Of a DNA stretch of 24,116 nt, positions 1 to 15,374 are shown piece after piece; positions within the stretch are counted from its first letter, which is position 1; every line of letters starts with the position of its first letter. The stretch is taken from IMG/VR virus record IMGVR_UViG_3300020469_000262, positions 1-24,116 of that record; one strand, 5' to 3'. Origin of the DNA: a virus (taxonomy: Duplodnaviria; Caudoviricetes). Position numbers and translations under genes: made by a program. The notes under the pieces are model-generated. The model made no database searches. It worked only from the letters and a program-made list of their open reading frames with translations, and had not been told where the DNA came from.

Positions 1-3000
1 AAGAACAATGAATTTGGTTTCGGTTATTCTCACGACTATACACTAAAACCTGAAATAACTTTCCCTGTAAACCTTCAACTGTTTAATACCGCTTTACTAG
101 CACAAATTAAGATAACTGATCCAGGTTCTGGATATACTTCAGTTCCTGCTGTTGTAATCGAAGGTGGTGGTGGTTCTAATGCTAGTGCTGAAGCAATAGT
201 TAAGAATAACAGACTTTCCGAGATCATTATTAAAGATCCAGGATCAGGTTACAGTTCTGAACCAGAAGTTACACTTAAGTCAGAATTTAACTACGTTGTT
301 AACGTTGATTTAGGATATCTACAGTTTAACTTCCCACACGGTATAACAAACGGAGCACAAATACAATTAAGAGCAGAAGATCTTGGATCTACAGTTGGTA
401 TTCTACCAAAACCAAGTTCTGCTGGTTTGGTCAGTCTATCTGCTAACCAGACATACTATGCTATTGCTGGTGAAGCAAATTCACTTGAATCTGACCAGTT
501 ACGTATCTCTTTAACACAGTTAGATGCTGAATCTGGTTCTTACATCACATTCTTGACACAAGGTGAAGGTAGACAGGTTCTTTTAACTGAAGTATTTGGT
601 GGTCAAGCAACTGCTATCGTTGAAACATCTCGTTTCTTAGAAGGTGAACTTGTTTATCAAGGTTCTTCACTTGAACTTGCATCTGCCACAGGTTATGTTT
701 CTACTAACGAAGGTTGGCAGATCGGACCTAGAATCCTTAAACTTGAGAACTATGATGGTGAATGGTTATCTGGTGAGCGTGTAACAGGTCAGGTATCACG
801 TGCTTCTGGTTTGATTGATAACCTTTCTATTGCAAGAGGTACACTTGAAATTGCATCTCTAACCACAACACCAGGTCAGTTTATCGATGACGTTGGTAAA
901 CCATCTGAAATTGTTCAGAAGATTCAAGATAGTTACTTCTATCAGAACTTCTCCTATGTTATTAAGTCTCAAACACCTATTAACCAGTGGAGAAAACCTG
1001 TATTAGAAACAAACCACCCTGTTGGATTCAACCTCTTTGGTGAATTGGCAATTACTGGTGGTAAAGATATTTCTGGAAGAAAAGTTGTATCTGATCTTGT
1101 TAAAGAAGTTAATATCAATAGTTTCACTAATATTAACCAGATTACATCATTTGCTAACGCACAACCAATATACACACAGTTTAATAACACTGAAGTCTTA
1201 TTCAGACAGAAGAGACTTACTAACTCTGAGGAAATTCTAACTTCTATTGTTAAGAAGGTAGATAACATTTCTGAAGAATTTGATGGTATCAGAACTCAGT
1301 TCCCACTGAATGTTGAGGGTTCATCAGTAACTGCAACAGAAGATCAGATGTTCATTCTGTTAAATGGTGTTGCACAGTCTCCAGGTACTGCATTCTCCAC
1401 AACAGGACCTTCTATAGTATTCTCAGAAGCACCTAAAGCACCTTCTAGAATTAAGTTCAGATCTTTACAGTTCTCACAACTTATCATTACTAGAATGACA
1501 TTTAGTACTATTGGTGGTATCTTCCCATTATTAGGTAATACAGTTCGTTCTCTACAAAATGAAGGTACTGCTTTAGTAATTGATTCTGGTGTTGACTATA
1601 TTGATGTTCTTAATGTAGTTGGTAGTTTCCAAATCAACGATAACGTCCTCTCCAGTGCAACTGGGTTTAATGCCGTACTCTCTGCTAAAAATAACATTAC
1701 TTCTAAGACAATCTTTGAACAAAGTGAAAGAATTACTAATTTATCTGGTAAGTTTGCTATTATTGAAGAGAATAACTTATTAGATGGTGTTATATCTGAT
1801 GACTTAGTTGTTTCTCGTACATCTGGTACTGCTGCGTTTGAAACTGGTGAATTTGAAATTAAGTTTAACGATATAATTTATTCTGCACGTTCTAAGATTG
1901 CAGCAACAGTTATTAGTATTGCTCCTTATCAAGATTCAGTATCTAATCAGATTATTGATACGGTTGATCTATCTCCTTCATCTTCCTTCTTTGGTCTTGT
2001 ATTCCAGAGGGTTCCTTCAATCACTTTCCCGAATGTTATCCTTGATAACATTTCAGAGACTGTTATTAACCCAACTGAACTTTATAGTGAGACTGCAAAT
2101 AACCAAGACTTCTTAGACTTTGAAAATGTACGTAACCAAGAGATACGTTATGACGGTTTAACTGGTACTGATTTTGCTGCTGGTACAGATATTCGTTTGA
2201 AGAAATTATACTTTACTAACTCCTCAATGAGGACACAACCTGATACTCGTGCATTTAACGCAGCAGAGGCATTAGAAAAGAATGCTGAGTTTATTGCTGA
2301 AGAAGCCGTGGGATTAATGTTGGCTTTCTACCCCTCCTTTACTATTCCAACAGGCAATCAAAACTGTATTGATGATATTGTTGATGTTCTCAACTTAATT
2401 GCTTGGCAAGTTCAGTATGATGGCAACTCAGAAGTTTGGGATGCTGCTAATACTTACGTTCAAAACAATAGCATATATCACGTTGATGGACAGGTTGCTC
2501 AAACTGTATATGCAATGACTAAAGCAAAGGATCTTGCTCTTAAATGTATTAATATGGAAGTTATTAATACATCTCATACTACAAAGCAACAATGGAGAGA
2601 TACAACTGTAACTGCTGAATATGTGGTAACTGATAACAGTCACGCTGATGCTAGAGCACTATTACTCGCTAACAAGTGGTACATTGCTCACGAATCATTA
2701 CATTACGCTAAACTACAAAATCCTGGTTATACAGTGTCTGGTGGAGATGAGCATTGTCTTTCTGATATAGTTGATGTTATTGAAGCATTAGGTTATAACA
2801 CTGCACACGGTGGTAACGACTTCATATGGGAAGCAACTGATCGTATTCTTCATTATGGTGTTACATCTGGTGATAGAAACACTATTGTAAATGCTTTCAC
2901 AAAAGCAAAGACAATGGCAGTTCAGATTATTCAAAATAATGCTGTTACTAAAGTAGACACTTCACACGGTTGGGTTCAGGTAATTGATAATACAATTACT

Positions 3001-6000
3001 GTTGATGCTGGTAACTGTGCTGCTGTACAATCAACCATCACTACATTGATGGATATTCTTATTACCAATCTTGGTACAACTGCATCACCTGGTACAAGAG
3101 CAGCATTCCAAGCAGCAGTAACTAAGACTGCACCTCAAGCAGATTACTCATCAGGTAGACTTACATATCCAGTAGGTGATAATGCTTGTGTAAACCAGAC
3201 ATCTGCTGTAACTAACTTCTTTAAGATTATTACTGATACTCTTCAAGATCCTACTGGTGCAGATAAAACAACATATCAATGGTCTATTAGTAACTTACAA
3301 AGAGTTGAACCAGCATATGCTTTCAAAGATGCTGAGACTGTTAAGTGCGTTAAACACAGTTATAAGAATAAGTCAACAGGTGGATTCTTTATATTTGGTG
3401 ATGTAGTTAAAGGTATAACATCTGGAAATACTGCTGAAGTTATTGGTTCAAATGGTGGTAACAAATGGATCTATAGTAAAGATCCTAGTGGAGCATTTAC
3501 TGTTGGAGAATATATCACTAACACTCTATTAACTAACGTTGGTGTTGTTGTAGATAATTTAGATTATGCTGTTGGTACTGGATCATTAGATTTCAACGGT
3601 AGTGCACACCTAACATATCCAGCAACTGAGAAACTTGCTTTAGGTGATGGTACAGTTGCTGCTGGTGACTTTACTATTGAACTATGGATAAAAGCAACTG
3701 CTGTTAATACAGTACAGATGCTATTAGATTTCCGTAGTAGTACATCTGACACTGGTTCATTCTATGTACTTCTTAATAACAATCAAATTCGTTGGAATGT
3801 AGGAAATAGTGATAGAATCACATCTACTGGTGTAGTAGCAAATACTTGGACACATATTGCTGTAACTCGTTCTACTGGTGTTACAAGATTATTTGTTGGT
3901 GGTACATTAGCAGGAAGTTATACAGATAATACAGTTTATGGTAATTTACCACTTAAGATTGGTGCAAATGCTTCTAACTCCACACCGTTTACTGGACATA
4001 TGGAGAACTTTATGGTTAAGAAAGGAATTGCTGAATATACAGTATCCTTTATACCATCAGCAGTATATGATTCTGGTGATCTTAATCTATCATTTGGATT
4101 TGATGGTGAAGCACCAATTCCTATTATTAAAGGTGAGATATATGCTACATTCCAACAATCAATCACATCAACTGCATCTGCTGATGGTATAGAATTGTGG
4201 AGAAGTGAAATAATGACTGAAGAGGTTGATCTCAGTCGTGAGGTAGAAAGAAATTGTGCAGATATTATTGAAACAAACAAATTCTGGATTGCTGAAGAAG
4301 CAGTGGGTAGAATGAAAGCTAAGTATCCAGATTTTGTGATACCTGGCGATACTGGTAACTCTACACAAGGTACAGATAAGTGTTTAAGAGATACTTATGA
4401 GTATATCATTCCTGCGATATATAAAGATCTTAGGTATGGTGGTAATTATAATAGTATCATTATTGGTAGAGGATATCTTGCTAACCAACAAGGTGAATTA
4501 GCACACGTTAATGAAGAACTACTTCAATCAATGTATGTTTGGAGAGAAGTTGCTAAACTTTGTATTGATGTAATTACAAAAGATCAGACTGATCTAACTG
4601 GTGCATATACAACACGAATTCGTGTTCCTAATTACTTTGCATCACCAGCTGGTAGTACAATTACTACTTACATTACTACATTAATGGATGATCTTCTTGA
4701 TGTATTAGGTCCTACAGGTCATAGATTTAGAGATGGTGCAGATTTACTATACTTCAACCGTAAATGTATTGCTGACGAAGTTGTTTACTGGTTAGAAGCA
4801 AGATATACAATTCAAATTAATAATCAAACAGTAAATCAACTTTATATACCTGGTGGTTCACCTGGTCGTGCAAAATGTGTTAGAGATATTAGAGATCATA
4901 TTATCCCTGCTATTGCTACTGATTTAATCACTGGTGGTAACTCTAATGCTCAAGGAATTATTGATTCATACTTAGATACTAATGGTAAGGTTTCTGATGT
5001 AGAACACGAGTTACTTCCAATGCTAGAAGCAATTGGATATGCTAAGTGGTTGATGGAGAAAGCATTACAAAACCTATTAATATCTCGTAGTGAAAATATC
5101 GCTAATCTTCCTGCTGGATCTTCAAACGCACAAACTATCGATGACTTTTTCCAGTTCCAATATACTGACTTACCAGCATTTAGAAAAGCATATGATGCAG
5201 CAGTTAACTATGACTTAACAGGTAACATAATAACAGAAAGTACATTCTATCCTCCAGATCCAAAAATTTATACAGGAACACATCGTGCTTTAGATGCTGC
5301 TGATCTTATCAATGCTAACAAACGTACTATTGCTGAAGAAGCAGTTGATCTAACAACTAAACAAAGTGCATTTACACATTATGGTTTTAGAGTACCTGGT
5401 GGTAAGGTTCATTGTGAAGATGATATTGTTGATATTTTAGATGGTGTTATCCACGATTTAAGATTTAGTGTTAACGAAAAAGTATACGAAGCATCTGAAT
5501 TATATCTCAATAGTGATTTTGGTCTGAAACACGTAACAGATCAAGCAGATGAAACCATCTATGCTATGAGAATGGCACGTGATATGGCAATCCTCGCCAT
5601 CCAGAACAAACTTGGGTTTAATCCCTATGAATCTGATTACACAGATGGTGGAGCACTTGGTGGAGGAGGAGGTGGTATAGAATCACGTCCTGATTACGAT
5701 TACAACTCTGGTGGTGGATTTGCATCATCAACTGAAGCTGGTAACAAATATTATGATGCTTCTAATGAAATTAAAAACAATTTAAGATTTATTGCTACAA
5801 CTGCTGTAGGTCGTGGTGTTTCAACATACTCTGGTCTTACATTCGGTGGATATGGTTATCAGTCTTGTGTTGATGATGTAATTGATGTTTTAGAAGCAGT
5901 CGTATTCAACTTAGCACACGGTGGTAATAATATTGTTTGGTATGCAAGTGACTTCTATATTACTATTGGTAATGCTATTCAACATATCAATTCACAAGCA

Positions 6001-9000
6001 ACACAAGTTAAGTATATCTTTGAACAAGCAAGAGATATTGCTATTCAGGTAATGAGACAACAGTTGGTTACTGTTAATGGATATACAGAAGGATATGCTA
6101 TTTACGACAATACAATTACTATCGATAACAATGGTGCAACCACTGGACAATATACTCCAACAGATGCAACTTATGATCCTACAACTGGTAATTTAGTTCT
6201 TACAAAAGCAGGACACGTTCTTACAACAAATGATAGTATTACTCTTGATCCAAATTCATTAGTATTTAATTGCACATTTGATGGTAATCAATCCAATAAA
6301 TCATATCCAAGACCATACGATCCTGCTTCTGGTGCCACTCTACCAATTACTGCAACAACAACTGACACATTCACTGTTGATGTTGGTACAACATCTAATG
6401 GAACATACAACGTAAGTTATGCAATTTACGAAGAAGATACAGGAAATATGTTCTTGGATGTTGGTAATCATAATCTTAGCAATGGAAGACATATTAGATT
6501 ACCTGATAATGCTATTTCATTCTTATGTCCTTATGGTAATGGTGTTCACACTTACATAAGTGGTGTTACTAACGCTATTGTTGCATCAACTGGTGGAAAT
6601 CATACTGCTGGATCAGGAACAACATATGATCCTGCTTCAGGAAATCTTGTATTAAATATTGGGTCTAATACCCTCACTGCCCCTACAACTCATACTGCAT
6701 CCAACGTTGCTTACAATCCAACATCGGGTGTAATGACAATAACCATTACAAGTCACCCATTCAGTAATGGAGATCAGATATTAATAGCAGATAACTCTCT
6801 ATCATTTACCTGTGGTCAAGATAGTGATACAACAAATCACTATTATCCAAGACCAACTGATCCTTCTAGTGGTAAGTGGTTAACAATATCAAATGTTAGT
6901 GGTGATAATTTTGATGTACAAGTTCTAGCAACTACACCTTCTACAAACACAACTGTACATAACTTTGTATGGGCTAAAACAAATGGAATTAGCAGAGCAA
7001 CTTCTACAGTTACTATTGCTGATAGTGCAGTCGTATTTACTTGTGATGCTGATAGTCACGCTTCAAATCACGCATATCCAAGAGCATCTGACCCTGTATC
7101 TGGAACTAACGTTGCTGTACAAGCAAAAACCAATACCACAATAACAGTTAACGTTGGTAAATCAGTTGGTTCTAATAGTACTAAGTCTTATCCACGTTCT
7201 ACAGATTATGCTAGTGGTAAATCATTAGAAGTTTTAGAAGTAACAGATTCTACATTTACTGCTACAAATGCAACATATAATCCTATAAGTGGAGTGATGG
7301 TAATCACTTCTGTTGCTCACGGATTTAATAACGGTGATGCAGTAATGATAGACACTAATTCATTGAACTTTACTTGTTCAATGGATAATTATGGAAGTGT
7401 TCATTCATATCCTCGTTTAACTGACCCTGCTCATAACATATATCTTCCTGTTCAAAATAAAACTAATGATACATTTGAAATTAATGTAGGTACTTCTCCA
7501 ACTCAATTATACAGTCCATCTAATGTTGTATATAACCCAACAACAGGTGATATGGTTATCACTATTGGTAGTCATAGTTTAGTTGCTGGAGCACACGTTA
7601 AACTTTCTGACAATGCTTTCACATTCACTTGTCTTGAAGATAATAACGCAACAAACCATTCATATCCTAGAACAACAACTACAACACATAGTACAACTGA
7701 CGCAGCATACAATCCAACAACAGGTGTAATGACTCTTCGTGTTCCTCAACACGGATTTGCAAATGGTGATCAAGTTAAGATTGCTGATAACTCATTAGTA
7801 TTCAAATGTGCTGCTGATGATTATTCTACAAACCATAGTTATCCAAGAACAACTGATCCTGCATCTGGATCTTGGTTGGAAATATCAAATATAACTACAA
7901 ACACATTTGATGTAAATGTTCTTCTAAGTACAGAAATACCTTCCACAAATACAACTGTACACGCATATCAATCTTCTACTGCTTCTAATATCACTTGGAA
8001 GAAAGATAGAGCATACGATGTTCCTTTGACAGTCAAGAGTGCTACAGATACAACTATCACAGTTAATGTTCTAGCATCTGGTAGAACTCCTTCTACAAAC
8101 ACAACTACACACACATTCGTTAGTGCTGCTGCTAATTCAGTCAGTGTTGGTGGAAATTACACACATCAATTTGTATCTGCTAAAGAGCACGGTATCAGAT
8201 TTAGAAATGGACGTATTAAGGTTAATGTAAACCCATCTCCAACAATCTACCAGTATCCTCATACCTTTATCAGTGCTGTTACTGGTGCTGTACAGTATGG
8301 TGGAAACTATACACATACATTTGTAAGTTCTGCTTCAAATTCAGTTAATTATGTTGTTGGTGGTGGTAATGCTGCTCGTTGTTCTAACCAAGCATCTGCG
8401 ATTACAACGTTGATGAATATTACTATCAATATGTTTGATTCAAGTAATACAGGTAATCCAAGATCATACTTAGATGGTGTGACAAGAACCCTACCAGGTG
8501 AATGGCCACTAACAGGTGAACGTGCATCCATAAGAGATACAACAATTACATATGACACTGCTGGTAGTGGAAAATGTGCAACAGAAGCTTCTGCGATCAA
8601 TACATTATTCTCTATACCAATCGGTGTTATCCAAACTGCTGCTGCTGGTAGTGGTAACTATCTTGTAAATCAAAGTATCACTAAAACAGTTACTCCTATA
8701 CCTTATTCCTCTGGTAATACACTTCTAAGTGGTGGTGGTATTTGTTATAACGTAACGTCTGCAATGGCAACATTGTCAGATCTAATTGAAGATACTCTAG
8801 GTAATGCACCTGAAATGTATCGTCAAGCAGCAAAATTATTGATGTTTAATAATGAGTACATTGATAAAGAAGCATTCTATAAGTCAACTAATAATTATTC
8901 GGGTTATGCTGCTGAATTAGAATTTGGTACAAACATCCGTAAGGCAATGATATATGACATCCTTACTGATGGAAATATAGCGACTATTCAATTAGTTAAC

Positions 9001-11946
9001 AGTTGGTTTGATAGTAATGGTATTTTTGTTGCTTATCCTGGTGTCTTTAGAACATACTTGATCTATCACGCTGAAGCATTAAAAGAGTATATGGTTAATA
9101 CTGTTGAGCAAGATTGTATCAACCCAGGTCCTAATAACTCGGAAGTTCCTTACACTAATAGAGAACTACGTCCTACTGCAACTGCTGTACATAAGATTCA
9201 CCAGTTATTCCACTTAATAATGACAGGTCTTGAGAAATCTTCAATTCCTACTGTATATCTAACTGAACCTTTTGACGTTGGTGTTGCTGTTAATACTGAT
9301 GGTTCTATCGATTCTGTTGGTCATAAGTTTGAAGCATACGATAAAGTTAATTATATTGTTCTCGGTACTGCTGTAACAGGACTTGATAGGGCACAATATT
9401 ATATTCACCCAGATACAACTGCAAACAAAATATATCTAGCAGAATATATTGATGGACTTAAGATAACAAAACTTACACCTGGTACATCTGGACAGGTTCA
9501 CACATTATCTGTTGGAGTTGATAACGGTGTAAATCGTATTGCAACCACATATGGTACTAGAGATATTCCTACACCTACAGGTGGTGGTATTAATACTGCT
9601 GATATATTCTTTGGTGGTACAAGTGGGGCATATGCTGAAGTAATCCGAATTCAAGATAACCTTGCACAAGTTCTATACAAGGTAGATTATATTCCAATAA
9701 CTCATACAAGTGGAGCTGTTAAATTTACAAATGGTGAGGTTATTGTTAAGACAGGTGCTACAGGAAATACTGGTACAGTTCTTGCAACTGACAGTGCAAC
9801 TTATATTAAAGTAGTGATGACTTCTGGAACATTTGTAGATACCGATAATCTTGAGGGTGTTACATCAGGTGCAACTGCTACTGCATCAGGATCTCCACAT
9901 AAACGTATCCTTGTCAACTTCAAACAGGGTGAATTTATTGCTACCGATATAATATACAGTAAGCAAGACTCTGGAAAAGCAAATGCTCTTATCGTTAGAA
10001 ATAATGATGGTTCATTACTTGACAATCAATCTGGTAGGGTTACATATGATGTAACGACTGTAACAGGTCAATTTGAAACTGGTGATGTTATCTACGGTTC
10101 TGTTACTGATCAAATTGTTGAAATTGAAGGATTTAATAAATTACCTAACTTTGGTGAATATCTCCATACAACAACGATTACTAGATTTACATATTCTGCG
10201 TTAATCACTGATACTGGAGTTACAGATTCATTTAACGTTGGTGATACATTACAATTACAGAACGCTGGACAATCTGTAGGACATACATTTGTTGTTACTG
10301 AACGAGATGATGATAATAATTACGTATACCTTGCAAATGAAACAGGTAGATTCTCTGCTATTGGTGATGATTTAACAGTTGTTGCTGGTGATGCTGCATA
10401 TCAACTTGCTAAGATTCCTGCTGGATCTAACTTCCCAAGTGTTTACACACAAGGAATTTCTGCTATAACAATCACAAACACTTCAGCATATGGAAGAATC
10501 GAAAAAATTGAACAAATTGGTCTACGTGCGATCATTCATCTTGGTGATACTTCTGGAACATTCGTCAAGAATGCTCAGATCATTGGTGACTATGGATTCC
10601 AAGGTGCTTGTTCTGTTGCTAAAGAATTACGTGGACGTGTTAGAAGGTTCTTCAGAGGATTTGATGGCGTACAGAAAAACTTCAAGTTAACTCAAACTAA
10701 CGGTACAGCATACTTCCCAGATCCTGCTGGACATATGATGATATTTGTGAATGGTATTCTACAACCTCCTGGTGGTAATAACGCATTTACTGCATTTTCT
10801 GATAATATTCAGTTCACTGAATCTCCTGCTGCTGGATCTAGTTTCCACGGTGTATATGTAGGTAAGTTAAGGCAGTTGGATGACATCTCATTCGACTTCG
10901 ATTCATTACGTAACTCATTCAACTTGAAGTTATCTGGAGTCTTCTACTCACTAACACTAACTGATGGTGTACAAAGTAATACAATTAGACCTGAGAACAA
11001 TATTGTCTGTCAGTTAAATGGTGTTATTCAGGAACCAGGTATCGGTTTTGAACTTGTTGGTTCACGTATTATCTTCTCTGAAGTTCCTCGTGCTGGTTCT
11101 ACATTCGTTGCCTTCTCTTATGTTGGTTCTGATGTTGACGTTATTGCAGCAACAGTCGTACCACCAATCGAATCTGGTGATAATTTATTCATCGAAGGTG
11201 AAGAATTTGAAAGAGAAGTTGCTCTTATTGAATCTTCTAACTCACTAATTACATTCGAGTATACAGGTGCTGTTCGTGGACGTAACGCAGACGCACTTGC
11301 AACTATCGAGAAAGGACGTATCACTGAAGCGATACTTACAAACTCAGGTGATGGTTATACATCTCGTCCAAACATTGATGTGATTTCCTCCTCTGGTTTC
11401 GGTGGTAAGATTAAAGCACTTGTTGGTCTCGCACGTATTGATGTTAAGAACTCTGGTCAAGGATATGTACAACCTACAGTTACTGTCTCAACATCAGTTC
11501 CAGATGACTATCTAGGACCTACAGGTGAAGGTGTTAATGGTGGTATTGACATATATGATCCTAATTACATTCCAACAGGTCAGAGTCAAGCACAAGGTGA
11601 ATCATTCATCAATATTAATTCTCAACCAGTTAACGTAACTGTTAACCAAGGTCAGATTGCTGCATTTACTGTGGTTGCAACTTCAACACCTAGTGGTCAA
11701 TCAATTAATTATCAGTGGCAGAAGAAGGATTACGGAACTAACAGTTGGATAAATATTGTTGGTGCTACATCAAGTGTTTACACTACTCCTGCTACAACTC
11801 AGGGTGATGGTGGCGATGAATTTAGAGTCGGATTAACATCCACAGGTGCTACACCTATACTCTCTAACGCTGCTACATTGACAATCAACATCGGTGCAAC
11901 AACTGTTGATAACTTCACACCTGATCAAATATTCGATGACAACTAA
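1..11946 (+). CDS. gp7: Giant virion structural protein, gp7-like baseplate wedge initiator of T4-like cyanophages (5'-truncated, >3980 aa)
   Basis: Frame +1 is open from base 1 (KNNEFGFGYSHDYTLKPEITFP...), so the TTG at 427 is not the real start. Contains IQDSYFYQNFSYVIKS...W...V...HPVGFNLFGE (922-1044), recognised as a gp7-like wedge motif, plus PGSGY Gly-rich repeats. Lies upstream of gp8. Stop TAA at 11944-11946. Confidence 0.8.
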   Translation, partial: KNNEFGFGYSHDYTLKPEITFPVNLQLFNTALLAQIKITDPGSGYTSVPAVVIEGGGGSNASAEAIVKNNRLSEIIIKDPGSGYSSEPEVTLKSEFNYVVNVDLGYLQFNFPHGITNGAQIQLRAEDLGSTVGILPKPSSAGLVSLSANQTYYAIAGEANSLESDQLRISLTQLDAESGSYITFLTQGEGRQVLLTEVFGGQATAIVETSRFLEGELVYQGSSLELASATGYVSTNEGWQIGPRILKLENYDGEWLSGERVTGQVSRASGLIDNLSIARGTLEIASLTTTPGQFIDDVGKPSEIVQKIQDSYFYQNFSYVIKSQTPINQWRKPVLETNHPVGFNLFGELAITGGKDISGRKVVSDLVKEVNINSFTNINQITSFANAQPIYTQFNNTEVLFRQKRLTNSEEILTSIVKKVDNISEEFDGIRTQFPLNVEGSSVTATEDQMFILLNGVAQSPGTAFSTTGPSIVFSEAPKAPSRIKFRSLQFSQLIITRMTFSTIGGIFPLLGNTVRSLQNEGTALVIDSGVDYIDVLNVVGSFQINDNVLSSATGFNAVLSAKNNITSKTIFEQSERITNLSGKFAIIEENNLLDGVISDDLVVSRTSGTAAFETGEFEIKFNDIIYSARSKIAATVISIAPYQDSVSNQIIDTVDLSPSSSFFGLVFQRVPSITFPNVILDNISETVINPTELYSETANNQDFLDFENVRNQEIRYDGLTGTDFAAGTDIRLKKLYFTNSSMRTQPDTRAFNAAEALEKNAEFIAEEAVGLMLAFYPSFTIPTGNQNCIDDIVDVLNLIAWQVQYDGNSEVWDAANTYVQNNSIYHVDGQVAQTVYAMTKAKDLALKCINMEVINTSHTTKQQWRDTTVTAEYVVTDNSHADARALLLANKWYIAHESLHYAKLQNPGYTVSGGDEHCLSDIVDVIEALGYNTAHGGNDFIWEATDRILHYGVTSGDRNTIVNAFTKAKTMAVQIIQNNAVTKVDTSHGWVQVIDNTITVDAGNCAAVQSTITTLMDILITNLGTTASPGTRAAFQAAVTKTAPQADYSSGRLTYPVGDNACVNQTSAVTNFFKIITDTLQDPTGADKTTYQWSISNLQRVEPAYAFKDAETVKCVKHSYKNKSTGGFFIFGDVVKGITSGNTAEVIGSNGGNKWIYSKDPSGAFTVGEYITNTLLTNVGVVVDNLDYAVGTGSLDFNGSAHLTYPATEKLALGDGTVAAGDFTIELWIKATAVNTVQMLLDFRSSTSDTGSFYVLLNNNQIRWNVGNSDRITSTGVVANTWTHIAVTRSTGVTRLFVGGTLAGSYTDNTVYGNLPLKIGANASNSTPFTGHMENFMVKKGIAEYTVSFIPSAVYDSGDLNLSFGFDGEAPIPIIKGEIYATFQQSITSTASADGIELWRSEIMTEEVDLSREVERNCADIIETNKFWIAEEAVGRMKAKYPDFVIPGDTGNSTQGTDKCLRDTYEYIIPAIYKDLRYGGNYNSIIIGRGYLANQQGELAHVNEELLQSMYVWREVAKLCIDVITKDQTDLTGAYTTRIRVPNYFASPAGSTITTYITTLMDDLLDVLGPTGHRFRDGADLLYFNRKCIADEVVYWLEARYTIQINNQTVNQLYIPGGSPGRAKCVRDIRDHIIPAIATDLITGGNSNAQGIIDSYLDTNGKVSDVEHELLPMLEAIGYAKWLMEKALQNLLISRSENIANLPAGSSNAQTIDDFFQFQYTDLPAFRKAYDAAVNYDLTGNIITESTFYPPDPKIYTGTHRALDAADLINANKRTIAEEAVDLTTKQSAFTHYGFRVPGGKVHCEDDIVDILDGVIHDLRFSVNEKVYEASELYLNSDFGLKHVTDQADETIYAMRMARDMAILAIQNKLGFNPYESDYTDGGALGGGGGGIESRPDYDYNSGGGFASSTEAGNKYYDASNEIKNNLRFIATTAVGRGVSTYSGLTFGGYGYQSCVDDVIDVLEAVVFNLAHGGNNIVWYASDFYITIGNAIQHINSQATQVKYIFEQARDIAIQVMRQQLVTVNGYTEGYAIYDNTITIDNNGATTGQYTPTDATYDPTTGNLVLTKAGHVLTTNDSITLDPNSLVFNCTFDGNQSNKSYPRPYDPASGATLPITATTTDTFTVDVGTTSNGTYNVSYAIYEEDTGNMFLDVGNHNLSNGRHIRLPDNAISFLCPYGNGVHTYISGVTNAIVASTGGNHTAGSGTTYDPASGNLVLNIGSNTLTAPTTHTASNVAYNPTSGVMTITITSHPFSNGDQILIADNSLSFTCGQDSDTTNHYYPRPTDPSSGKWLTISNVSGDNFDVQVLATTPSTNTTVHNFVWAKTNGISRATSTVTIADSAVVFTCDADSHASNHAYPRASDPVSGTNVAVQAKTNTTITVNVGKSVGSNSTKSYPRSTDYASGKSLEVLEVTDSTFTATNATYNPISGVMVITSVAHGFNNGDAVMIDTNSLNFTCSMDNYGSVHSYPRLTDPAHNIYLPVQNKTNDTFEINVGTSPTQLYSPSNVVYNPTTGDMVITIGSHSLVAGAHVKLSDNAFTFTCLEDNNATNHSYPRTTTTTHSTTDAAYNPTTGVMTLRVPQHGFANGDQVKIADNSLVFKCAADDYSTNHSYPRTTDPASGSWLEISNITTNTFDVNVLLSTEIPSTNTTVHAYQSSTASNITWKKDRAYDVPLTVKSATDTTITVNVLASGRTPSTNTTTHTFVSAAANSVSVGGNYTHQFVSAKEHGIRFRNGRIKVNVNPSPTIYQYPHTFISAVTGAVQYGGNYTHTFVSSASNSVNYVVGGGNAARCSNQASAITTLMNITINMFDSSNTGNPRSYLDGVTRTLPGEWPLTGERASIRDTTITYDTAGSGKCATEASAINTLFSIPIGVIQTAAAGSGNYLVNQSITKTVTPIPYSSGNTLLSGGGICYNVTSAMATLSDLIEDTLGNAPEMYRQAAKLLMFNNEYIDKEAFYKSTNNYSGYAAELEFGTNIRKAMIYDILTDGNIATIQLVNSWFDSNGIFVAYPGVFRTYLIYHAEALKEYMVNTVEQDCINPGPNNSEVPYTNRELRPTATAVHKIHQLFHLIMTGLEKSSIPTVYLTEPFDVGVAVNTDGSIDSVGHKFEAYDKVNYIVLGTAVTGLDRAQYYIHPDTTANKIYLAEYIDGLKITKLTPGTSGQVHTLSVGVDNGVNRIATTYGTRDIPTPTGGGINTADIFFGGTSGAYAEVIRIQDNLAQVLYKVDYIPITHTSGAVKFTNGEVIVKTGATGNTGTVLATDSATYIKVVMTSGTFVDTDNLEGVTSGATATASGSPHKRILVNFKQGEFIATDIIYSKQDSGKANALIVRNNDGSLLDNQSGRVTYDVTTVTGQFETGDVIYGSVTDQIVEIEGFNKLPNFGEYLHTTTITRFTYSALITDTGVTDSFNVGDTLQLQNAGQSVGHTFVVTERDDDNNYVYLANETGRFSAIGDDLTVVAGDAAYQLAKIPAGSNFPSVYTQGISAITITNTSAYGRIEKIEQIGLRAIIHLGDTSGTFVKNAQIIGDYGFQGACSVAKELRGRVRRFFRGFDGVQKNFKLTQTNGTAYFPDPAGHMMIFVNGILQPPGGNNAFTAFSDNIQFTESPAAGSSFHGVYVGKLRQLDDISFDFDSLRNSFNLKLSGVFYSLTLTDGVQSNTIRPENNIVCQLNGVIQEPGIGFELVGSRIIFSEVPRAGSTFVAFSYVGSDVDVIAATVVPPIESGDNLFIEGEEFEREVALIESSNSLITFEYTGAVRGRNADALATIEKGRITEAILTNSGDGYTSRPNIDVISSSGFGGKIKALVGLARIDVKNSGQGYVQPTVTVSTSVPDDYLGPTGEGVNGGIDIYDPNYIPTGQSQAQGESFININSQPVNVTVNQGQIAAFTVVATSTPSGQSINYQWQKKDYGTNSWINIVGATSSVYTTPATTQGDGGDEFRVGLTSTGATPILSNAATLTINIGATTVDNFTPDQIFDDN
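922..1044 (+). other. gp7-like conserved core motif (QDSY.YQ.FSY.IKS...HP.G..LFG)
   Basis: Direct translation; motif recalled from T4-like baseplate wedge proteins. Confidence 0.7.
3565..4107 (+). other. LamG / concanavalin A-like lectin domain inside the giant protein
   Basis: GSLDFNG...GDFTIELWIK...NTWTHIAVTRSTGVTRLFVGG...LKIGAN...FTGHMENFMV is the typical Laminin_G_3 pattern. Confidence 0.85.
6151..8346 (+). repeat. Seven ~100-aa beta-rich repeats (Y[ND]P.[TS]G / F.C / YPR..DP / H.F.SA) arranged as nested insertions
   Basis: Exactly seven copies of each of the four sub-motifs, in a non-tandem order (see findings). Confidence 0.85.
10640..11125 (+). repeat. Two tandem ~70-80-aa domains (FDG....F.L...NG..Q.P...F......I.F.E.P), with a third copy at ~1252-1470
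   Basis: FDGIRTQFPL...LNGVAQSPG...IVFSEAP; FDGVQKNFKL...VNGILQPPG...IQFTESP; FDSLRNSFNL...LNGVIQEPG...IIFSEVP. Confidence 0.8.
11608..11889 (+). other. C-terminal Ig-like domain of the giant protein
   Basis: INSQPVNVTV..GQ.A.FTV.A...YQWQK...W.NI.GATSS.YT...D.G.EFRV...SNAATLTI. Confidence 0.8.
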
Positions 11947-13694
11947 TGGCAGCAGAAGGTACTTACAATCCAGCAACTAAGATATTAACCGTAACAGGAG
12001 ATGGTATGCCATCCCCTGTATCTTACGGTACTTTTCCTAATGATAATAATCCAAACACAGTAGCAGCATATACTTTCAATCACTCTTTCTTGTATAGAGG
12101 TGGTGAAAATACAACTGGTGCTAGTTCAGTTCCATTAGGTATCGTTGGTTTTACTTCTAACGGTGTTGCTATATTTAATCCTAGTGCTGGTTCTGGTGGT
12201 AGTCCTCCTACAGGATTTCATTGGGTTGCCACTGCTGACTATGGAATGGTTAATTTTGGTGAAGATAGTTATGGTGGACATCCCGAATCAACTGGACAGT
12301 ATCATTATCACGATGGTGAGTTTTTAACTGGTTTCAAAGAGAACCAGATAATGAGTTTATATAATGATTACTATGGTCAGAGTCAATTTGGACAAGATAA
12401 TTTACGTCATCCTGATGGACATTCTAAAATATTAGGATTTGCATTTGACGGTTATCCTGTATATGGACCATATGGATATAATTTACCAACAGATAATACT
12501 TCTCCAATAGTACTTATGGAAACAGGGTATCAAATGAGAAGTAGTATTGCTACTAATCGTCCTGCATATGGTATAACTTTAGCAAACCCTCCTAAAGGAT
12601 CTTTGATGGAGGATTATGAATATAACGTTAGCAAACCAGGTAGACATTTAGATGTTTACAATGGTCGTTTCTGCAATACTCCAGAGTTTCCAAGTGGAAC
12701 ATTTGCATATTTTATAACATTGTGGAGTGATGAAACTGAATCAAAAGAGTATACAGTAACTGTTACAAGTGAATCAAATGGTAACAAATACAGAATTGAT
12801 GGCGTACTTTATCCAAACTTAACATTTGTTAAAGGTAGTACATATAAGTTTATACTTTCTGATAATAGTGTTGCTAACCACCAATTATTATTTTCTGATG
12901 CAAGTAATGGTTATCACGGTGCTGGTACAACATACACAACAGGTGTAACTACAGTAGGATCTGCTGGTAATGCTGGTGCGTATACTGAGATTACAGTTGC
13001 TCAAGATGCACCGTCACAACTGTATTATTTCTGCTCTCTCCATTCTAATATGTCTGAGAGTAGTGTAATAACTGTGGTTCCTAATCGTCACTTGACTCCT
13101 AAGTTTCCATACATATTTGGTCTCTCATCTAAACAGACACTAAATATACCTAGTAACCAAGGTGTCGGCACACCTCCTGCTAGTGGAGGTGATGGTGGAG
13201 GTAGTAGTGGTACGCCTCAAACACCTAGTATAATAATTACAAACCAACCCACTAACGCAACTATTGCTGATGGTGGTACTCAAACTTTCAGTTTGATTGC
13301 TGTAATTGAACCTGAAGCTGGTACTATTGCATATCAGTGGCAAGTATCTACCGATGGTGGATTTACTTGGGCTAACCTTACAGGACAGAATACTTCTTCC
13401 TTACAAGTAGTAGCACAAGCGTTTATGACAGGTTATAGGTATAGATGTGTATGTATAGGTCCTGTCGGAGCTCAGACACAAGCATCTAACTCACCGCTTT
13501 CAAGTAACCTAGCAATTCTCACCGTAACAGGTGGAACGAGTCAACAAGATACATCTGGTATTTTGAAGTGGGACAGTAATGTCGGTAAATTTGATATGAC
13601 TTCGGTTCCTTTTGATAGGGACAATAACAACCCAGATCTGACTAGAAATAATATCAGACTTGACGCAACTAATTATAATTACGACCTTACATAA
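11946..13694 (+). CDS. YHYH-domain protein with inserted cupredoxin-like domain, Ig-like domain and C-terminal aromatic-Asp heptad tail (582 aa), probably virion-associated
   Basis: GGHP...QYHYH (12300-12311), HSKILGFAFDGYPVYGPYG, LDVYNGRFC.TPEFP.GT.AYF. ATG overlaps the upstream stop (TAATG). Confidence 0.85.
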   Translation: MAAEGTYNPATKILTVTGDGMPSPVSYGTFPNDNNPNTVAAYTFNHSFLYRGGENTTGASSVPLGIVGFTSNGVAIFNPSAGSGGSPPTGFHWVATADYGMVNFGEDSYGGHPESTGQYHYHDGEFLTGFKENQIMSLYNDYYGQSQFGQDNLRHPDGHSKILGFAFDGYPVYGPYGYNLPTDNTSPIVLMETGYQMRSSIATNRPAYGITLANPPKGSLMEDYEYNVSKPGRHLDVYNGRFCNTPEFPSGTFAYFITLWSDETESKEYTVTVTSESNGNKYRIDGVLYPNLTFVKGSTYKFILSDNSVANHQLLFSDASNGYHGAGTTYTTGVTTVGSAGNAGAYTEITVAQDAPSQLYYFCSLHSNMSESSVITVVPNRHLTPKFPYIFGLSSKQTLNIPSNQGVGTPPASGGDGGGSSGTPQTPSIIITNQPTNATIADGGTQTFSLIAVIEPEAGTIAYQWQVSTDGGFTWANLTGQNTSSLQVVAQAFMTGYRYRCVCIGPVGAQTQASNSPLSSNLAILTVTGGTSQQDTSGILKWDSNVGKFDMTSVPFDRDNNNPDLTRNNIRLDATNYNYDLT

Positions 13695-13697
13695 ATA
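13690..13697 (+). promoter_or_regulatory. Probable T4-type (gp55-dependent) late promoter, CATAAATA
   Basis: One mismatch to TATAAATA; overlaps the upstream stop codon and ends 24 nt before the ATG at 13722. Confidence 0.7.
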
Positions 13698-13721
13698 AAA
13701 ACGTAGAATAACCCCCCTACT

Positions 13722-15374
13722 ATGGCTAAACAGAATCTCAATATTGGTGTAAGTGCCAATGATGGAACAGGTGATACCCTGAGAGACGGTGCTATAAAAC
13801 TCAATAATGTTATAAACGAGTTATATACCTATCTTGGCGATAACACTAACCTACAACTTTCCATTGGATCACCATCAACAAACCAAGTTTTAAAATGGAA
13901 TGGTTCAGTATTTACTGAAGGACAACTTGCTGCATCTAATCTGACAGACGTGGACGTTAGTGGGGTTACTAACGGACAGGTTCTTAAGTGGAATACTGCA
14001 AATGCTCGCTGGCAGCCAGGCGACGATCTACAAGGTGGTGGTGGCGGTGGTTCATCAATTACTAACCTAACCAATAATGGTTCTGGTAACGTTGTTGTAA
14101 ATACTCATTTCTTACCTAATAGTGATAATACATTTGATCTTGGATCTACAACTCTAAGATTTCGTGATGGTTATTTTACAAACGCATCTATCTTCTTGGG
14201 TGATACTGCTATAAGTGCAGATCCAACTACACAAGAATTACAAAGAAAGAAAAAGAAATCACATACTGTAGAAAGTATTAACACAGGTGCAACTAGAACT
14301 GTATCATCAAAACTATCTTCTGAAGACTCAACACAAGAAGAGCAATTCAGAACTCGTTTTAGTGCTATGAAAGTTGGTACTAAGTTACATATTGAAGATT
14401 CAACTGGTGCAAAAGCAGAAGTTGATTTTGCATCATTTACTGCTGAGAACGGTGGTGCACGTGGTTTTATTAGTGTTACTGCTGCTGGTGCAAACCAATC
14501 TCAAGAATTATCAACCACTAACCCTGTTCACATAACATCTGTTAATACGATGTTGAGTGAAGATGAAACAGGTACAGTTTCAATAACAGGACAAAAATTA
14601 GATTTTGGTAGTAGCAATACTATTGAATTTGATGGTTCTGGTAACTTACAGATTCCAGAATCTGCTGAAATTAAATTTGGTAGTGGTGCAAATAAAAAAC
14701 TATCATTTGATGGTAGTGACAACTTGATTCTTGCTGCTGGTACAGATATTCAGTTTGGTACTACTAATAAACTTAGTATGGACGCATCTGGTAACTTAAC
14801 ACTTCCAGATGGAGAACTACGTTTTGGAACAAGTGCACGTAAATTAAAAGTTGATAGTGATGGTAACTTAGAACTTCCTAGTGACGGTGAGATCAAGATC
14901 GGTACAAAGAGAATGAAGATCGGTACCAATGGTGATCTTGAAGTTGCTAATGATGGTACTAACTTTAATGAGATAGGTGGAGGTATTGGTTCTCAGTTAA
15001 GTAATGCTCCTGCTGGATCTTCTATTATTAAAGGACACGATAACTCTACTATCTACAAACCATCTCCAACAATTTTATATGTATTCACTAATAATGGTAT
15101 GACGAATTACATAGTAAATGGACCTGGCTCTGCAAGTAATGCTGCTAATGGTCCTCTTATAGTTCATAGAGGATTCACTTATGATCTTAAGAATGCTGCT
15201 GGTGGACATCCACTAGAACTAAGAGTTTCTGATGGTGGTTCAGAATATACAGGTGGTGTTTCAGGAAATAAGAACGCATTACAAACTTGGACAGTTCCAT
15301 TCGATGCTCCAACAACCCTTTACTATCAATGCACGTCACACCCTGCAATGATAGGAACAATCACGGTCAAATGA
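13722..15374 (+). CDS. Fibre-like baseplate protein with gp9/gp10-type N-terminus, internal beta repeats and C-terminal cupredoxin-like domain (550 aa)
   Basis: MAKQNLNIGVSANDGTGDTLRDGAIKLN..INELY is the gp9/gp10 N-terminal signature. Two QVLKWN fibre repeats, five ~22-aa repeats, and a LYYQCTSHPAMIGTITV end. Confidence 0.75.
   Translation: MAKQNLNIGVSANDGTGDTLRDGAIKLNNVINELYTYLGDNTNLQLSIGSPSTNQVLKWNGSVFTEGQLAASNLTDVDVSGVTNGQVLKWNTANARWQPGDDLQGGGGGGSSITNLTNNGSGNVVVNTHFLPNSDNTFDLGSTTLRFRDGYFTNASIFLGDTAISADPTTQELQRKKKKSHTVESINTGATRTVSSKLSSEDSTQEEQFRTRFSAMKVGTKLHIEDSTGAKAEVDFASFTAENGGARGFISVTAAGANQSQELSTTNPVHITSVNTMLSEDETGTVSITGQKLDFGSSNTIEFDGSGNLQIPESAEIKFGSGANKKLSFDGSDNLILAAGTDIQFGTTNKLSMDASGNLTLPDGELRFGTSARKLKVDSDGNLELPSDGEIKIGTKRMKIGTNGDLEVANDGTNFNEIGGGIGSQLSNAPAGSSIIKGHDNSTIYKPSPTILYVFTNNGMTNYIVNGPGSASNAANGPLIVHRGFTYDLKNAAGGHPLELRVSDGGSEYTGGVSGNKNALQTWTVPFDAPTTLYYQCTSHPAMIGTITVK
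14595..14957 (+). repeat. Five tandem ~22-aa repeats (I.FG...k.l..D.sGNL.lp)
   Basis: LDFGSSNTIEFDGSGNLQIP / IKFGSGANKKLSFDGSDNLILA / IQFGTTNKLSMDASGNLTLP / LRFGTSARKLKVDSDGNLELP / IKIGTKRMKIGTNGDLEVA. Confidence 0.85.

Follow-up and report, generated by a model that had tools for sequence, protein, structure and literature searches.

In the phycobiliprotein CpcB, Cys82 and Cys153 carry separate bilins some 30 angstrom apart. According to the accessible text of PMC10452541, T-type lyases act at the position equivalent to beta Cys-153, and the substrate of phage CpeT is taken there, as in the accessible part of PMC2984593, to be host phycoerythrin; the latter, a review, describes as unclear what Prochlorococcus phages gain from their bilin genes. 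We analyzed a 24-kb linear virus record (IMG/VR record IMGVR_UViG_3300020469_000262, Duplodnaviria; Caudoviricetes; 13% complete, GC ∼36%), whose positions 1 to 24,116 are called the window, i.e. the whole stretch of DNA under study. It opens with a giant open reading frame (ORF) for a virion protein bearing seven helical repeats, H1 to H7. The repeats are homologous to phycobiliproteins: they are phycobiliprotein-type globin cores without helices X/Y, and their order around the insert is H4-H5-H6-insert-closer 1-closer 2-closer 3. The closing helix, or closer, is likely helix H and the nesting site likely the G-H loop; the helix names follow the established phycobiliprotein nomenclature.

An earlier note, made from the sequence alone, had described these repeats as nested helical units without recognising their phycobiliprotein fold. 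An iterated hidden Markov model (HMM) of the core detects seven repeats and no others (starts at aa 749, 879, 1416, 1574, 1761, 1915 and 2938), and a position-specific scoring matrix (PSSM) of the closing helix detects exactly six closers, at aa 1006, 1063, 1551, 2794, 2859 and 2915, with scores of 29–45. The PSSM was scored without its Cys column at a threshold of 10, and gave zero matches scoring at least 8 on 168,933 shuffled residues. Together, HMM and PSSM bear out the order that had been read by eye, namely H1 and H2 followed by two closers, H3 by one, and H4, H5 and H6 by the insert, three closers and H7. H3 had been called intact and is so; the same claim for H7 was not confirmed, as the PSSM finds a closer after H7 in no locus, and a helix-like stretch read by eye at ∼aa 3060–3080 is the sole basis for its closure. 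All eight peptides that the note had quoted occur in frame +1, at or a few codons from the places it gave. The repeats and their parts are as follows, with the peptides of this frame +1 check listed after them.

2242–2619, plus strand: H1 core (helices A-G), open at the G-H loop, with the C..D cysteine Cys789 at 2365 (PF00502, E 5e-4; core HMM)
2632–3075, plus strand: H2, an intact phycobiliprotein-fold domain inside H1, with Cys919 (2755) and helix-H Cys1006 (3016)
3187–3243, plus strand: helix H of H1 (Cys1063; closer PSSM)
4240–4710, plus strand: H3, intact, with Cys1461 (CLRD) present and helix H beginning with Gly1551
4720–5142, plus strand: H4 core, outermost, with Cys1626 (CVRD) at 4876
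5281–5640, plus strand: H5 core, middle, with Cys1805 at 5413, lacking the G-H linker (which precedes closer 2)
5743–6126, plus strand: H6 core, innermost, with Cys1956 at 5866, terminating in the linker DNTITID
6127–8379, plus strand: optional insert of ∼100-aa beta modules (the ‘beta tree’), ∼7 modules, partly nested (PHROG 5342, 1276)
8380–8439, plus strand: closer 1, helix H of H6 (Cys2794), contiguous with H6 in S-WAM1, S-SZBM1 and the L047 type
8533–8631, plus strand: G-H linker and closer 2, putative helix H of H5 (Cys2859)
8743–8802, plus strand: closer 3, putative helix H of H4 (Cys2915)
8812–9249, plus strand: H7, a divergent repeat without C..D, end approximate
2596–2619, plus strand: peptide RDTTVTAE
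2986–3057, plus strand: peptide DNTITVDAGNCAAVQSTITTLMDI
3187–3231, plus strand: peptide CVNQTSAVTNFFKII
6106–6126, plus strand: peptide DNTITID
8380–8421, plus strand: peptide CSNQASAITTLMNI
8533–8556, plus strand: peptide RDTTITYD
8575–8616, plus strand: peptide CATEASAINTLFSI
8743–8787, plus strand: peptide CYNVTSAMATLSDLI

The relationship to phycobiliproteins emerged from profile as well as structure comparisons. Pfam Phycobilisome (PF00502) matches the whole ORF with 36.5 bits against a cut-off of 22.2 and H1 with its enclosed H2 with 22.7 bits; single repeats reach at most 21.6. With a profile built from 32 naturally intact core-plus-closer domains, E≤1 was reached by 138 PDB sequences, the best of them at 8.8e-6; phycobiliprotein chains account for 59 of the 60 matches listed. 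The stretch kclrD...GG of this profile aligns with KCLRD and KCARD of phycobiliproteins. In a global HH alignment to two Acaryochloris CpcB sequences (residues 34–172, E 2.4e-6), C..D is matched to CpcB Cys82, and Cys153 is matched to the cysteine of the closer. The AF2 model of window H1 with H2 (pLDDT 79.9, pTM 0.68) found phycobiliprotein entries in Foldseek as 37 of the 38 matches listed, mostly named beta chains, with a probability of 1.00 and a TM by target of 0.49–0.67. AF2 models and Foldseek point to a globin-like A-H helical fold. Cys82/84 and Asp85/87 of helix E are matched by C..D in H1 to H6 and not in H7, and the second bilin cysteine, Cys153/155, has its counterpart at the start of helix H in the global alignment, with weak PSSM support on CpcB. 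Helices X/Y, which serve alpha-beta assembly, have no counterpart, the alignment beginning at CpcB residue 34. Such a repeat would work like a phycobiliprotein but is not an antenna subunit.

Several results weigh against this assignment. The local HH alignment to CpcB covers 58 columns only, the CpcB Cys153 region scores 4.2 and −2.3 with the closer PSSM, below the threshold of 10, and the Foldseek E-values of the H1 model (0.02–0.12) are not significant. H2 by itself has no phycobiliprotein match, and Arg84/86 of C-x-R-D is found only in H3 and H4 (two of six domains). A homologue search with the domain profile returned 12 proteins of 97–316 aa, none a phycobiliprotein, and H2 gave no usable match in Atlas. 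Ornithine decarboxylase appeared for H2 in four weak PDB matches (phmmer, E 0.03), which we took as chance.

The proposal of the earlier note that H1 encloses H2, and that H4 encloses H5, H5 encloses H6 and H6 the beta tree, was supported by natural variants, linker position, orthology and a confident model, and we regard nesting in this order as highly probable. The loci compared are partly redundant, the same contig occurring more than once and close relatives being included; one additional contig, of 4.4 kb, was left aside. Across 79 three-closer loci, the gap between the last core and closer 1 ranges from 8 to 2541 residues, the closers keep a constant spacing (62–69 and 49–56 aa), and all three closer cysteines are present in 78. 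The gap shrinks to only 8–24 residues in 36 of these loci, making H6 and closer 1 one contiguous domain; examples are S-WAM1, S-SZBM1 and the L047 type, the last with 64% identity to the window. Four loci (L080, L081, L091 and L092) contain a fourth core together with a fourth closer, added inside. Three cores and three closers were counted in 74/85 loci (22/25 when non-redundant), a count that excludes four-core and un-nested loci, which are missed by the H4 regex and come from the PSSM scan.

At the other extreme, Syn10, ACG-2014d, S-ShM2, S-SSM4 and L095 carry an un-nested H4 with a single closer. Un-nested cores match window H4 best in 7/7 cases tested (S-SM1 and S-RIM8 included), all four that entered a tree were placed in its H4 clade with support of 100/97, and the un-nested H4 closer with 60 residues has closer 3 as its best match in 14/15 comparisons. 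The G-H linker precedes closer 2 in 12/12 loci listed and never follows H5, and closer 2 was assigned to H5 for this reason. We strongly infer the pairing of H6 with closer 1, H5 with closer 2 and H4 with closer 3. The AF2 model of H4 to closer 3 from L100, where a single beta module occupies this insertion site (pLDDT 76.5, pTM 0.66, closers 76–91), fits a single ordered unit.

If the helices after the insert formed a bundle of their own and H4 to H6 were short tandem repeats, there would be no nesting at all. Comparison of the helices only is in line with this, as it fails to single out closer 3 or to assign closer partners. However, the closer count follows the core count (1, 3 or 4), H6 and closer 1 are contiguous in the 36 loci mentioned above, and the cores would otherwise lack the helix H found in intact paralogues. 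We consider this reading already largely refuted and hardly credible. Two further observations count against the overall reading: the other 11 of the 85 loci are of the P-TIM40 type with diverged closers, only one or two of which exceed the threshold, and Foldseek on the 681-aa L100 model gave nothing significant, phycobiliproteins ranking 19th and lower. L012, of the P-TIM40 type, has three closers at similar spacing with scores of 6.4, 40.9 and 3.7.

The nested domains are predicted to form an out-and-back arm with the geometry of an elongated stalk; from the nesting topology, the beta tree would sit at its tip. A second insertion site lies after core columns 37–40 and accepts beta modules (L028) or whole domains, with three-deep nesting in S-PM2. 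In this phage (L206, S-PM2 50001–65000, ORF at +3485, aa 857–1533) a triple B-E-loop nesting surrounds an intact domain and all four closers carry Cys; the profile matches S-PM2 13 times, spread over two proteins. L210 and L211 (ACG-2014f and S-CAM7) have very divergent domains, split by a ∼3000-residue insert, and an equally divergent cpeT.

The insert between H6 and closer 1 spans aa 2043–2793, i.e. 751 aa (∼730 aa in the earlier note). It is itself bracketed, with seven opener and six closer motifs, four of the closers being stacked at aa 2704–2772. Pfam gave no match anywhere in the beta tree. For one beta module the closest named Atlas cluster is E1_FCCH-like (PF16190, score 0.92; this label applies to 73% of the members, and 91% of them are viral), and UBA6/Uba1 appear weakly among the Foldseek matches of the L100 model. 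We treat this likeness as a lead only, the modules of the window being repeated and nested. L090 has another type of insert at the same H6 G-H site, a glycine-rich, apparently beta-rich stretch of ∼230 aa at aa ∼3925–4150 of its giant ORF; Thr replaces the closer-1 Cys in this locus.

Next to their arrangement, most of the repeats share two cysteines. C..D is present in 289/290 distinct sequences of the H1 to H6 cores (loose regex), and 196/207 closers begin with Cys. As had been noted from the sequence, H7 lacks C..D (0/54 distinct sequences) and the H3 closer lacks its Cys, beginning with Gly in the window; in the window lineage its first residue is Gly, Ser or Thr, or the helix falls short of the threshold. 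The earlier note had gone on to suggest that the two cysteines pair, and a disulfide stapling each nested domain shut would suit the presence of both in H1, H2, H4, H5 and H6 and of neither in H7. This part found no support: because each cysteine aligns with a bilin site of its own, C..D with beta-82 (CpcB Cys82) and the closer Cys with beta-153 (Cys153), a disulfide between them is disfavoured. Their conservation is not coupled either, as H3 keeps C..D in 61/61 sequences without a partner Cys, and closer 1 of L090 and of the P-TIM40 type lacks Cys where the cores keep theirs. We therefore judge such a staple very unlikely. A third cysteine is found in helix G, Cys849 of H1 (2545–2547) and Cys1521 of H3 (4561–4563). 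Cys849 is invariant in H1 of 14/14 aligned relatives, and a helix-G Cys is common in H3. Its place in the sequence topology, close to where helix H begins, makes the helix-G Cys a stronger candidate than C..D for a disulfide with the closer Cys; alternatively it is a candidate for a further bilin site.

The domain and the lyase gene cpeT occur largely together. Of the 29 complete named phages compared, 19 carry both and 9 carry neither; S-SKS1 is the only one with the domain but no cpeT. Twelve of these phages, namely S-SKS1 and 11 of the 19, had been picked for the domain; the 17 phages not so picked divide into 8 with both and 9 with neither (Fisher p 4e-5). The concordance includes the very divergent versions of ACG-2014f and S-CAM7. 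The Pfam CpeT model missed 3/11 named phages, all 11 of which were recovered by a phage-CpeT profile. Absence was rechecked by unfiltered searches for domain and cpeT in P-SSM2 and S-SM2 and for cpeT in S-SKS1; they agree that P-SSM2 and S-SM2 are negative and S-SKS1 is the exception, the other seven domain/cpeT negatives resting on a prefiltered search. cpeT lies ≤1.5 kb upstream of gp5 in 12/21 genomes (11 by regex, Syn10 by its next ORF); in three more, Sf-FR1, Syn1 and S-PM2, it precedes a tail gene with repeats by 0.6–1.4 kb. ATAAATA, a late-promoter-like motif, occurs within 400 nt upstream of 9/24 genes, compared with 0.06 expected per 400 nt.

Relatives at 64–66% identity (G003, G004 and G012) have two cpeT genes each, and G003 and G004 also a bilin reductase. 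These paralogues stand in tandem, away from gp5 (L135/L143 in G012, L136 in G004, L137 in G003), and possibly provide one lyase per site type. Bilin reductase genes were found in 9/32 genomes. In L169 (P-SSM7 13407–14535) a cpeT match with one internal TAA is immediately followed by a bilin reductase gene and then gp5.

On balance, we expect that the nested phycobiliprotein-related domains form an arm with a variable beta-module tip, and that the conserved cysteines of these domains would carry bilin attached with the aid of CpeT; that the virion protein bears bilin and CpeT takes part in loading it seems to us somewhat favoured. Stacking would come about as each domain is inserted into what is likely the G-H loop of its neighbour. 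During infection, the bilin, made by the host or by PebS, might be ligated by phage CpeT to the beta-153-like Cys at helix H; the beta-82-like Cys may be served by a host lyase or by spontaneous attachment.

Against this reading stands S-SKS1, whose domain keeps the closer Cys in a genome without CpeT. The window's 13%-complete contig has no cpeT, and two further genomes with the domain (G001 and G005, 94% and 85% complete) gave no cpeT match, the expected site lying at or over the contig edge. A bilin reductase also occurs where the domain does not, in P-SSM2 and S-SSM7, and the Fisher p-value overstates the support, the genomes being related. The S-SKS1 copy (L161:8464–11250) consists of a single domain, its closer bearing Cys, and belongs to a tail fibre of 928 aa whose gene adjoins an HNH gene and psbA; the copy is perhaps a recent transfer that uses a host lyase.

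The same nested arm could be a purely structural scaffold without bilin, its cysteines kept for packing, metal or another modification and cpeT following by descent. H7 lacks both cysteines yet is kept in all lineages, the Arg of C-x-R-D is missing in 4/6 domains, S-SKS1 lacks CpeT, bilin reductase genes fail to track the domain, and a globin-like fold tolerates insertions and could act as a spacer. However, cysteines stand at exactly both bilin positions in the proportions given above despite a paralogue identity of ∼20–30%, cpeT is located among baseplate and tail genes, and the concordance extends to the very divergent ACG-2014f and S-CAM7. A scaffold without pigment is possible, though we think it the less probable reading.

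With a bilin-bearing arm, light absorption could speculatively shift the arm and expose or position its tip, and thereby gate adsorption. The case rests on three phages, P-HM2, S-PM2 and P-SSM2. As reported in the accessible text of PMC6628666, P-HM2 shows no adsorption in the dark, S-PM2 adsorbs in a light-dependent manner independent of host photosynthesis, and P-SSM2 adsorbs in the dark and better in light; light-only adsorption is ascribed there to unknown light-sensitive host receptors or phage tail fibres. The domain is present in P-HM2 and S-PM2 and absent in P-SSM2, whose adsorption is light-enhanced nevertheless, a point against gating by the domain. Light-gated adsorption via a bilin arm is a tentative proposal, as is the full picture of a CpeT-loaded multi-bilin arm acting as a virion photoreceptor that permits adsorption only in light, with the swappable beta tree as host-contact tip.

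The domains might instead bind bilin, or host phycobiliproteins or linkers, within the cell or at its surface and without any light switch; they could then be a decoy, an antenna, a photoprotective pigment or a means of receptor contact. One protein can hold as many as about nine domains and one phage two or three of these proteins, numbers that would suit bulk pigment rather than a single sensor, and light-stimulated adsorption is seen without the domain. Assembly into the host antenna is unlikely, however, given that helices X/Y, which build alpha-beta monomers, are absent, and up to bilin ligation by CpeT this explanation overlaps with the favoured one. As a distinct reading we consider it quite improbable.

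The protein that carries the arm belongs, by its neighbourhood and family match, to the baseplate. Two further features of the window are listed here.

1–11946, plus strand: giant virion protein of the gp7/baseplate-wedge-initiator type, 5′-truncated (PHROG 701, 2885; gene order)
3631–4017, plus strand: Laminin G / concanavalin-A-like domain, between H1 and H3 (PF13385, E 1e-18)

The ORF is read in frame +1, is open at its 5′ end and encodes 3981 aa, versions in relatives having 5400–9200 aa. It is followed by genes for a YHYH protein, a gp9/10-like protein, gp8 and DUF4815, and both the gp9/10-like and gp8 neighbours and the family match fit gp7; relatives are labelled in databases as baseplate wedge initiator, gp7 or virion structural protein. 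On its gene content, the cluster is identified as the baseplate wedge cluster of T4-like cyanophages. Searching with the repeats by tblastn yielded 344 and 304 phage records, every one named Synechococcus, Prochlorococcus or Cyanophage, and the host of the window virus is presumably Prochlorococcus. The YHYH protein has its own gene in the window (11946–13694), and in PHROG 701, 2885 and 4406 a YHYH-like stretch sits inside giant proteins; because of this difference, YHYH appears to be mobile among baseplate genes.

No paper on these domains was found in the full-text literature, a scope outside which lie most subscription papers and supplements, where domain tables could mention them. The accessible portions of PMC12284385 and PMC5082946 yielded no mention of cpeT or phycobili, and the literature search found no paper on cpeT timing. 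The phycobiliprotein fold is known; its use as nested virion building blocks did not turn up in the literature searched, and the present analysis adds a test of the pairing order on natural variants as well as arguments against the disulfide. Two questions become directly testable, namely the substrate of CpeT, a widespread lyase of cyanophages, and the reason why some cyanophages adsorb only in light. If the virion is pigmented, cpeT would be a morphogenesis gene and not a metabolic helper. The nesting furthermore shows how recursive insertion, using two loops, can extend a virion arm from a single domain to four deep, with tips of 0 to 2500 residues.

Compared with T4 gp7 and the cyanophage baseplate wedge initiators (PHROG 701, 2885), the window protein has the same place before gp9-like, gp8 and DUF4815 genes and the same annotation, but it contains phycobiliprotein-like, Laminin G and beta-module inserts. 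Phage CpeT (PF06206) is a T-type bilin lyase and serves the site that the phage closers keep; in contrast to the CpeT literature, the substrate proposed here is a phage structural protein. With CpcB and CpeB (PF00502) the phage repeats share the helix pattern A-B-E-F′-F-G-H, a helix E in which C-x-x-D is followed by GG, and a second Cys that begins helix H. They differ from these proteins in lacking helices X/Y, in their low identity (15–25%) and in the frequent loss of the Arg of C-x-R-D, and bilin binding by them is a prediction only. Unlike CpcB and CpeB, they carry insertions in the G-H and B-E loops and are arranged in tandem and nested within a virion protein of >5000 aa.

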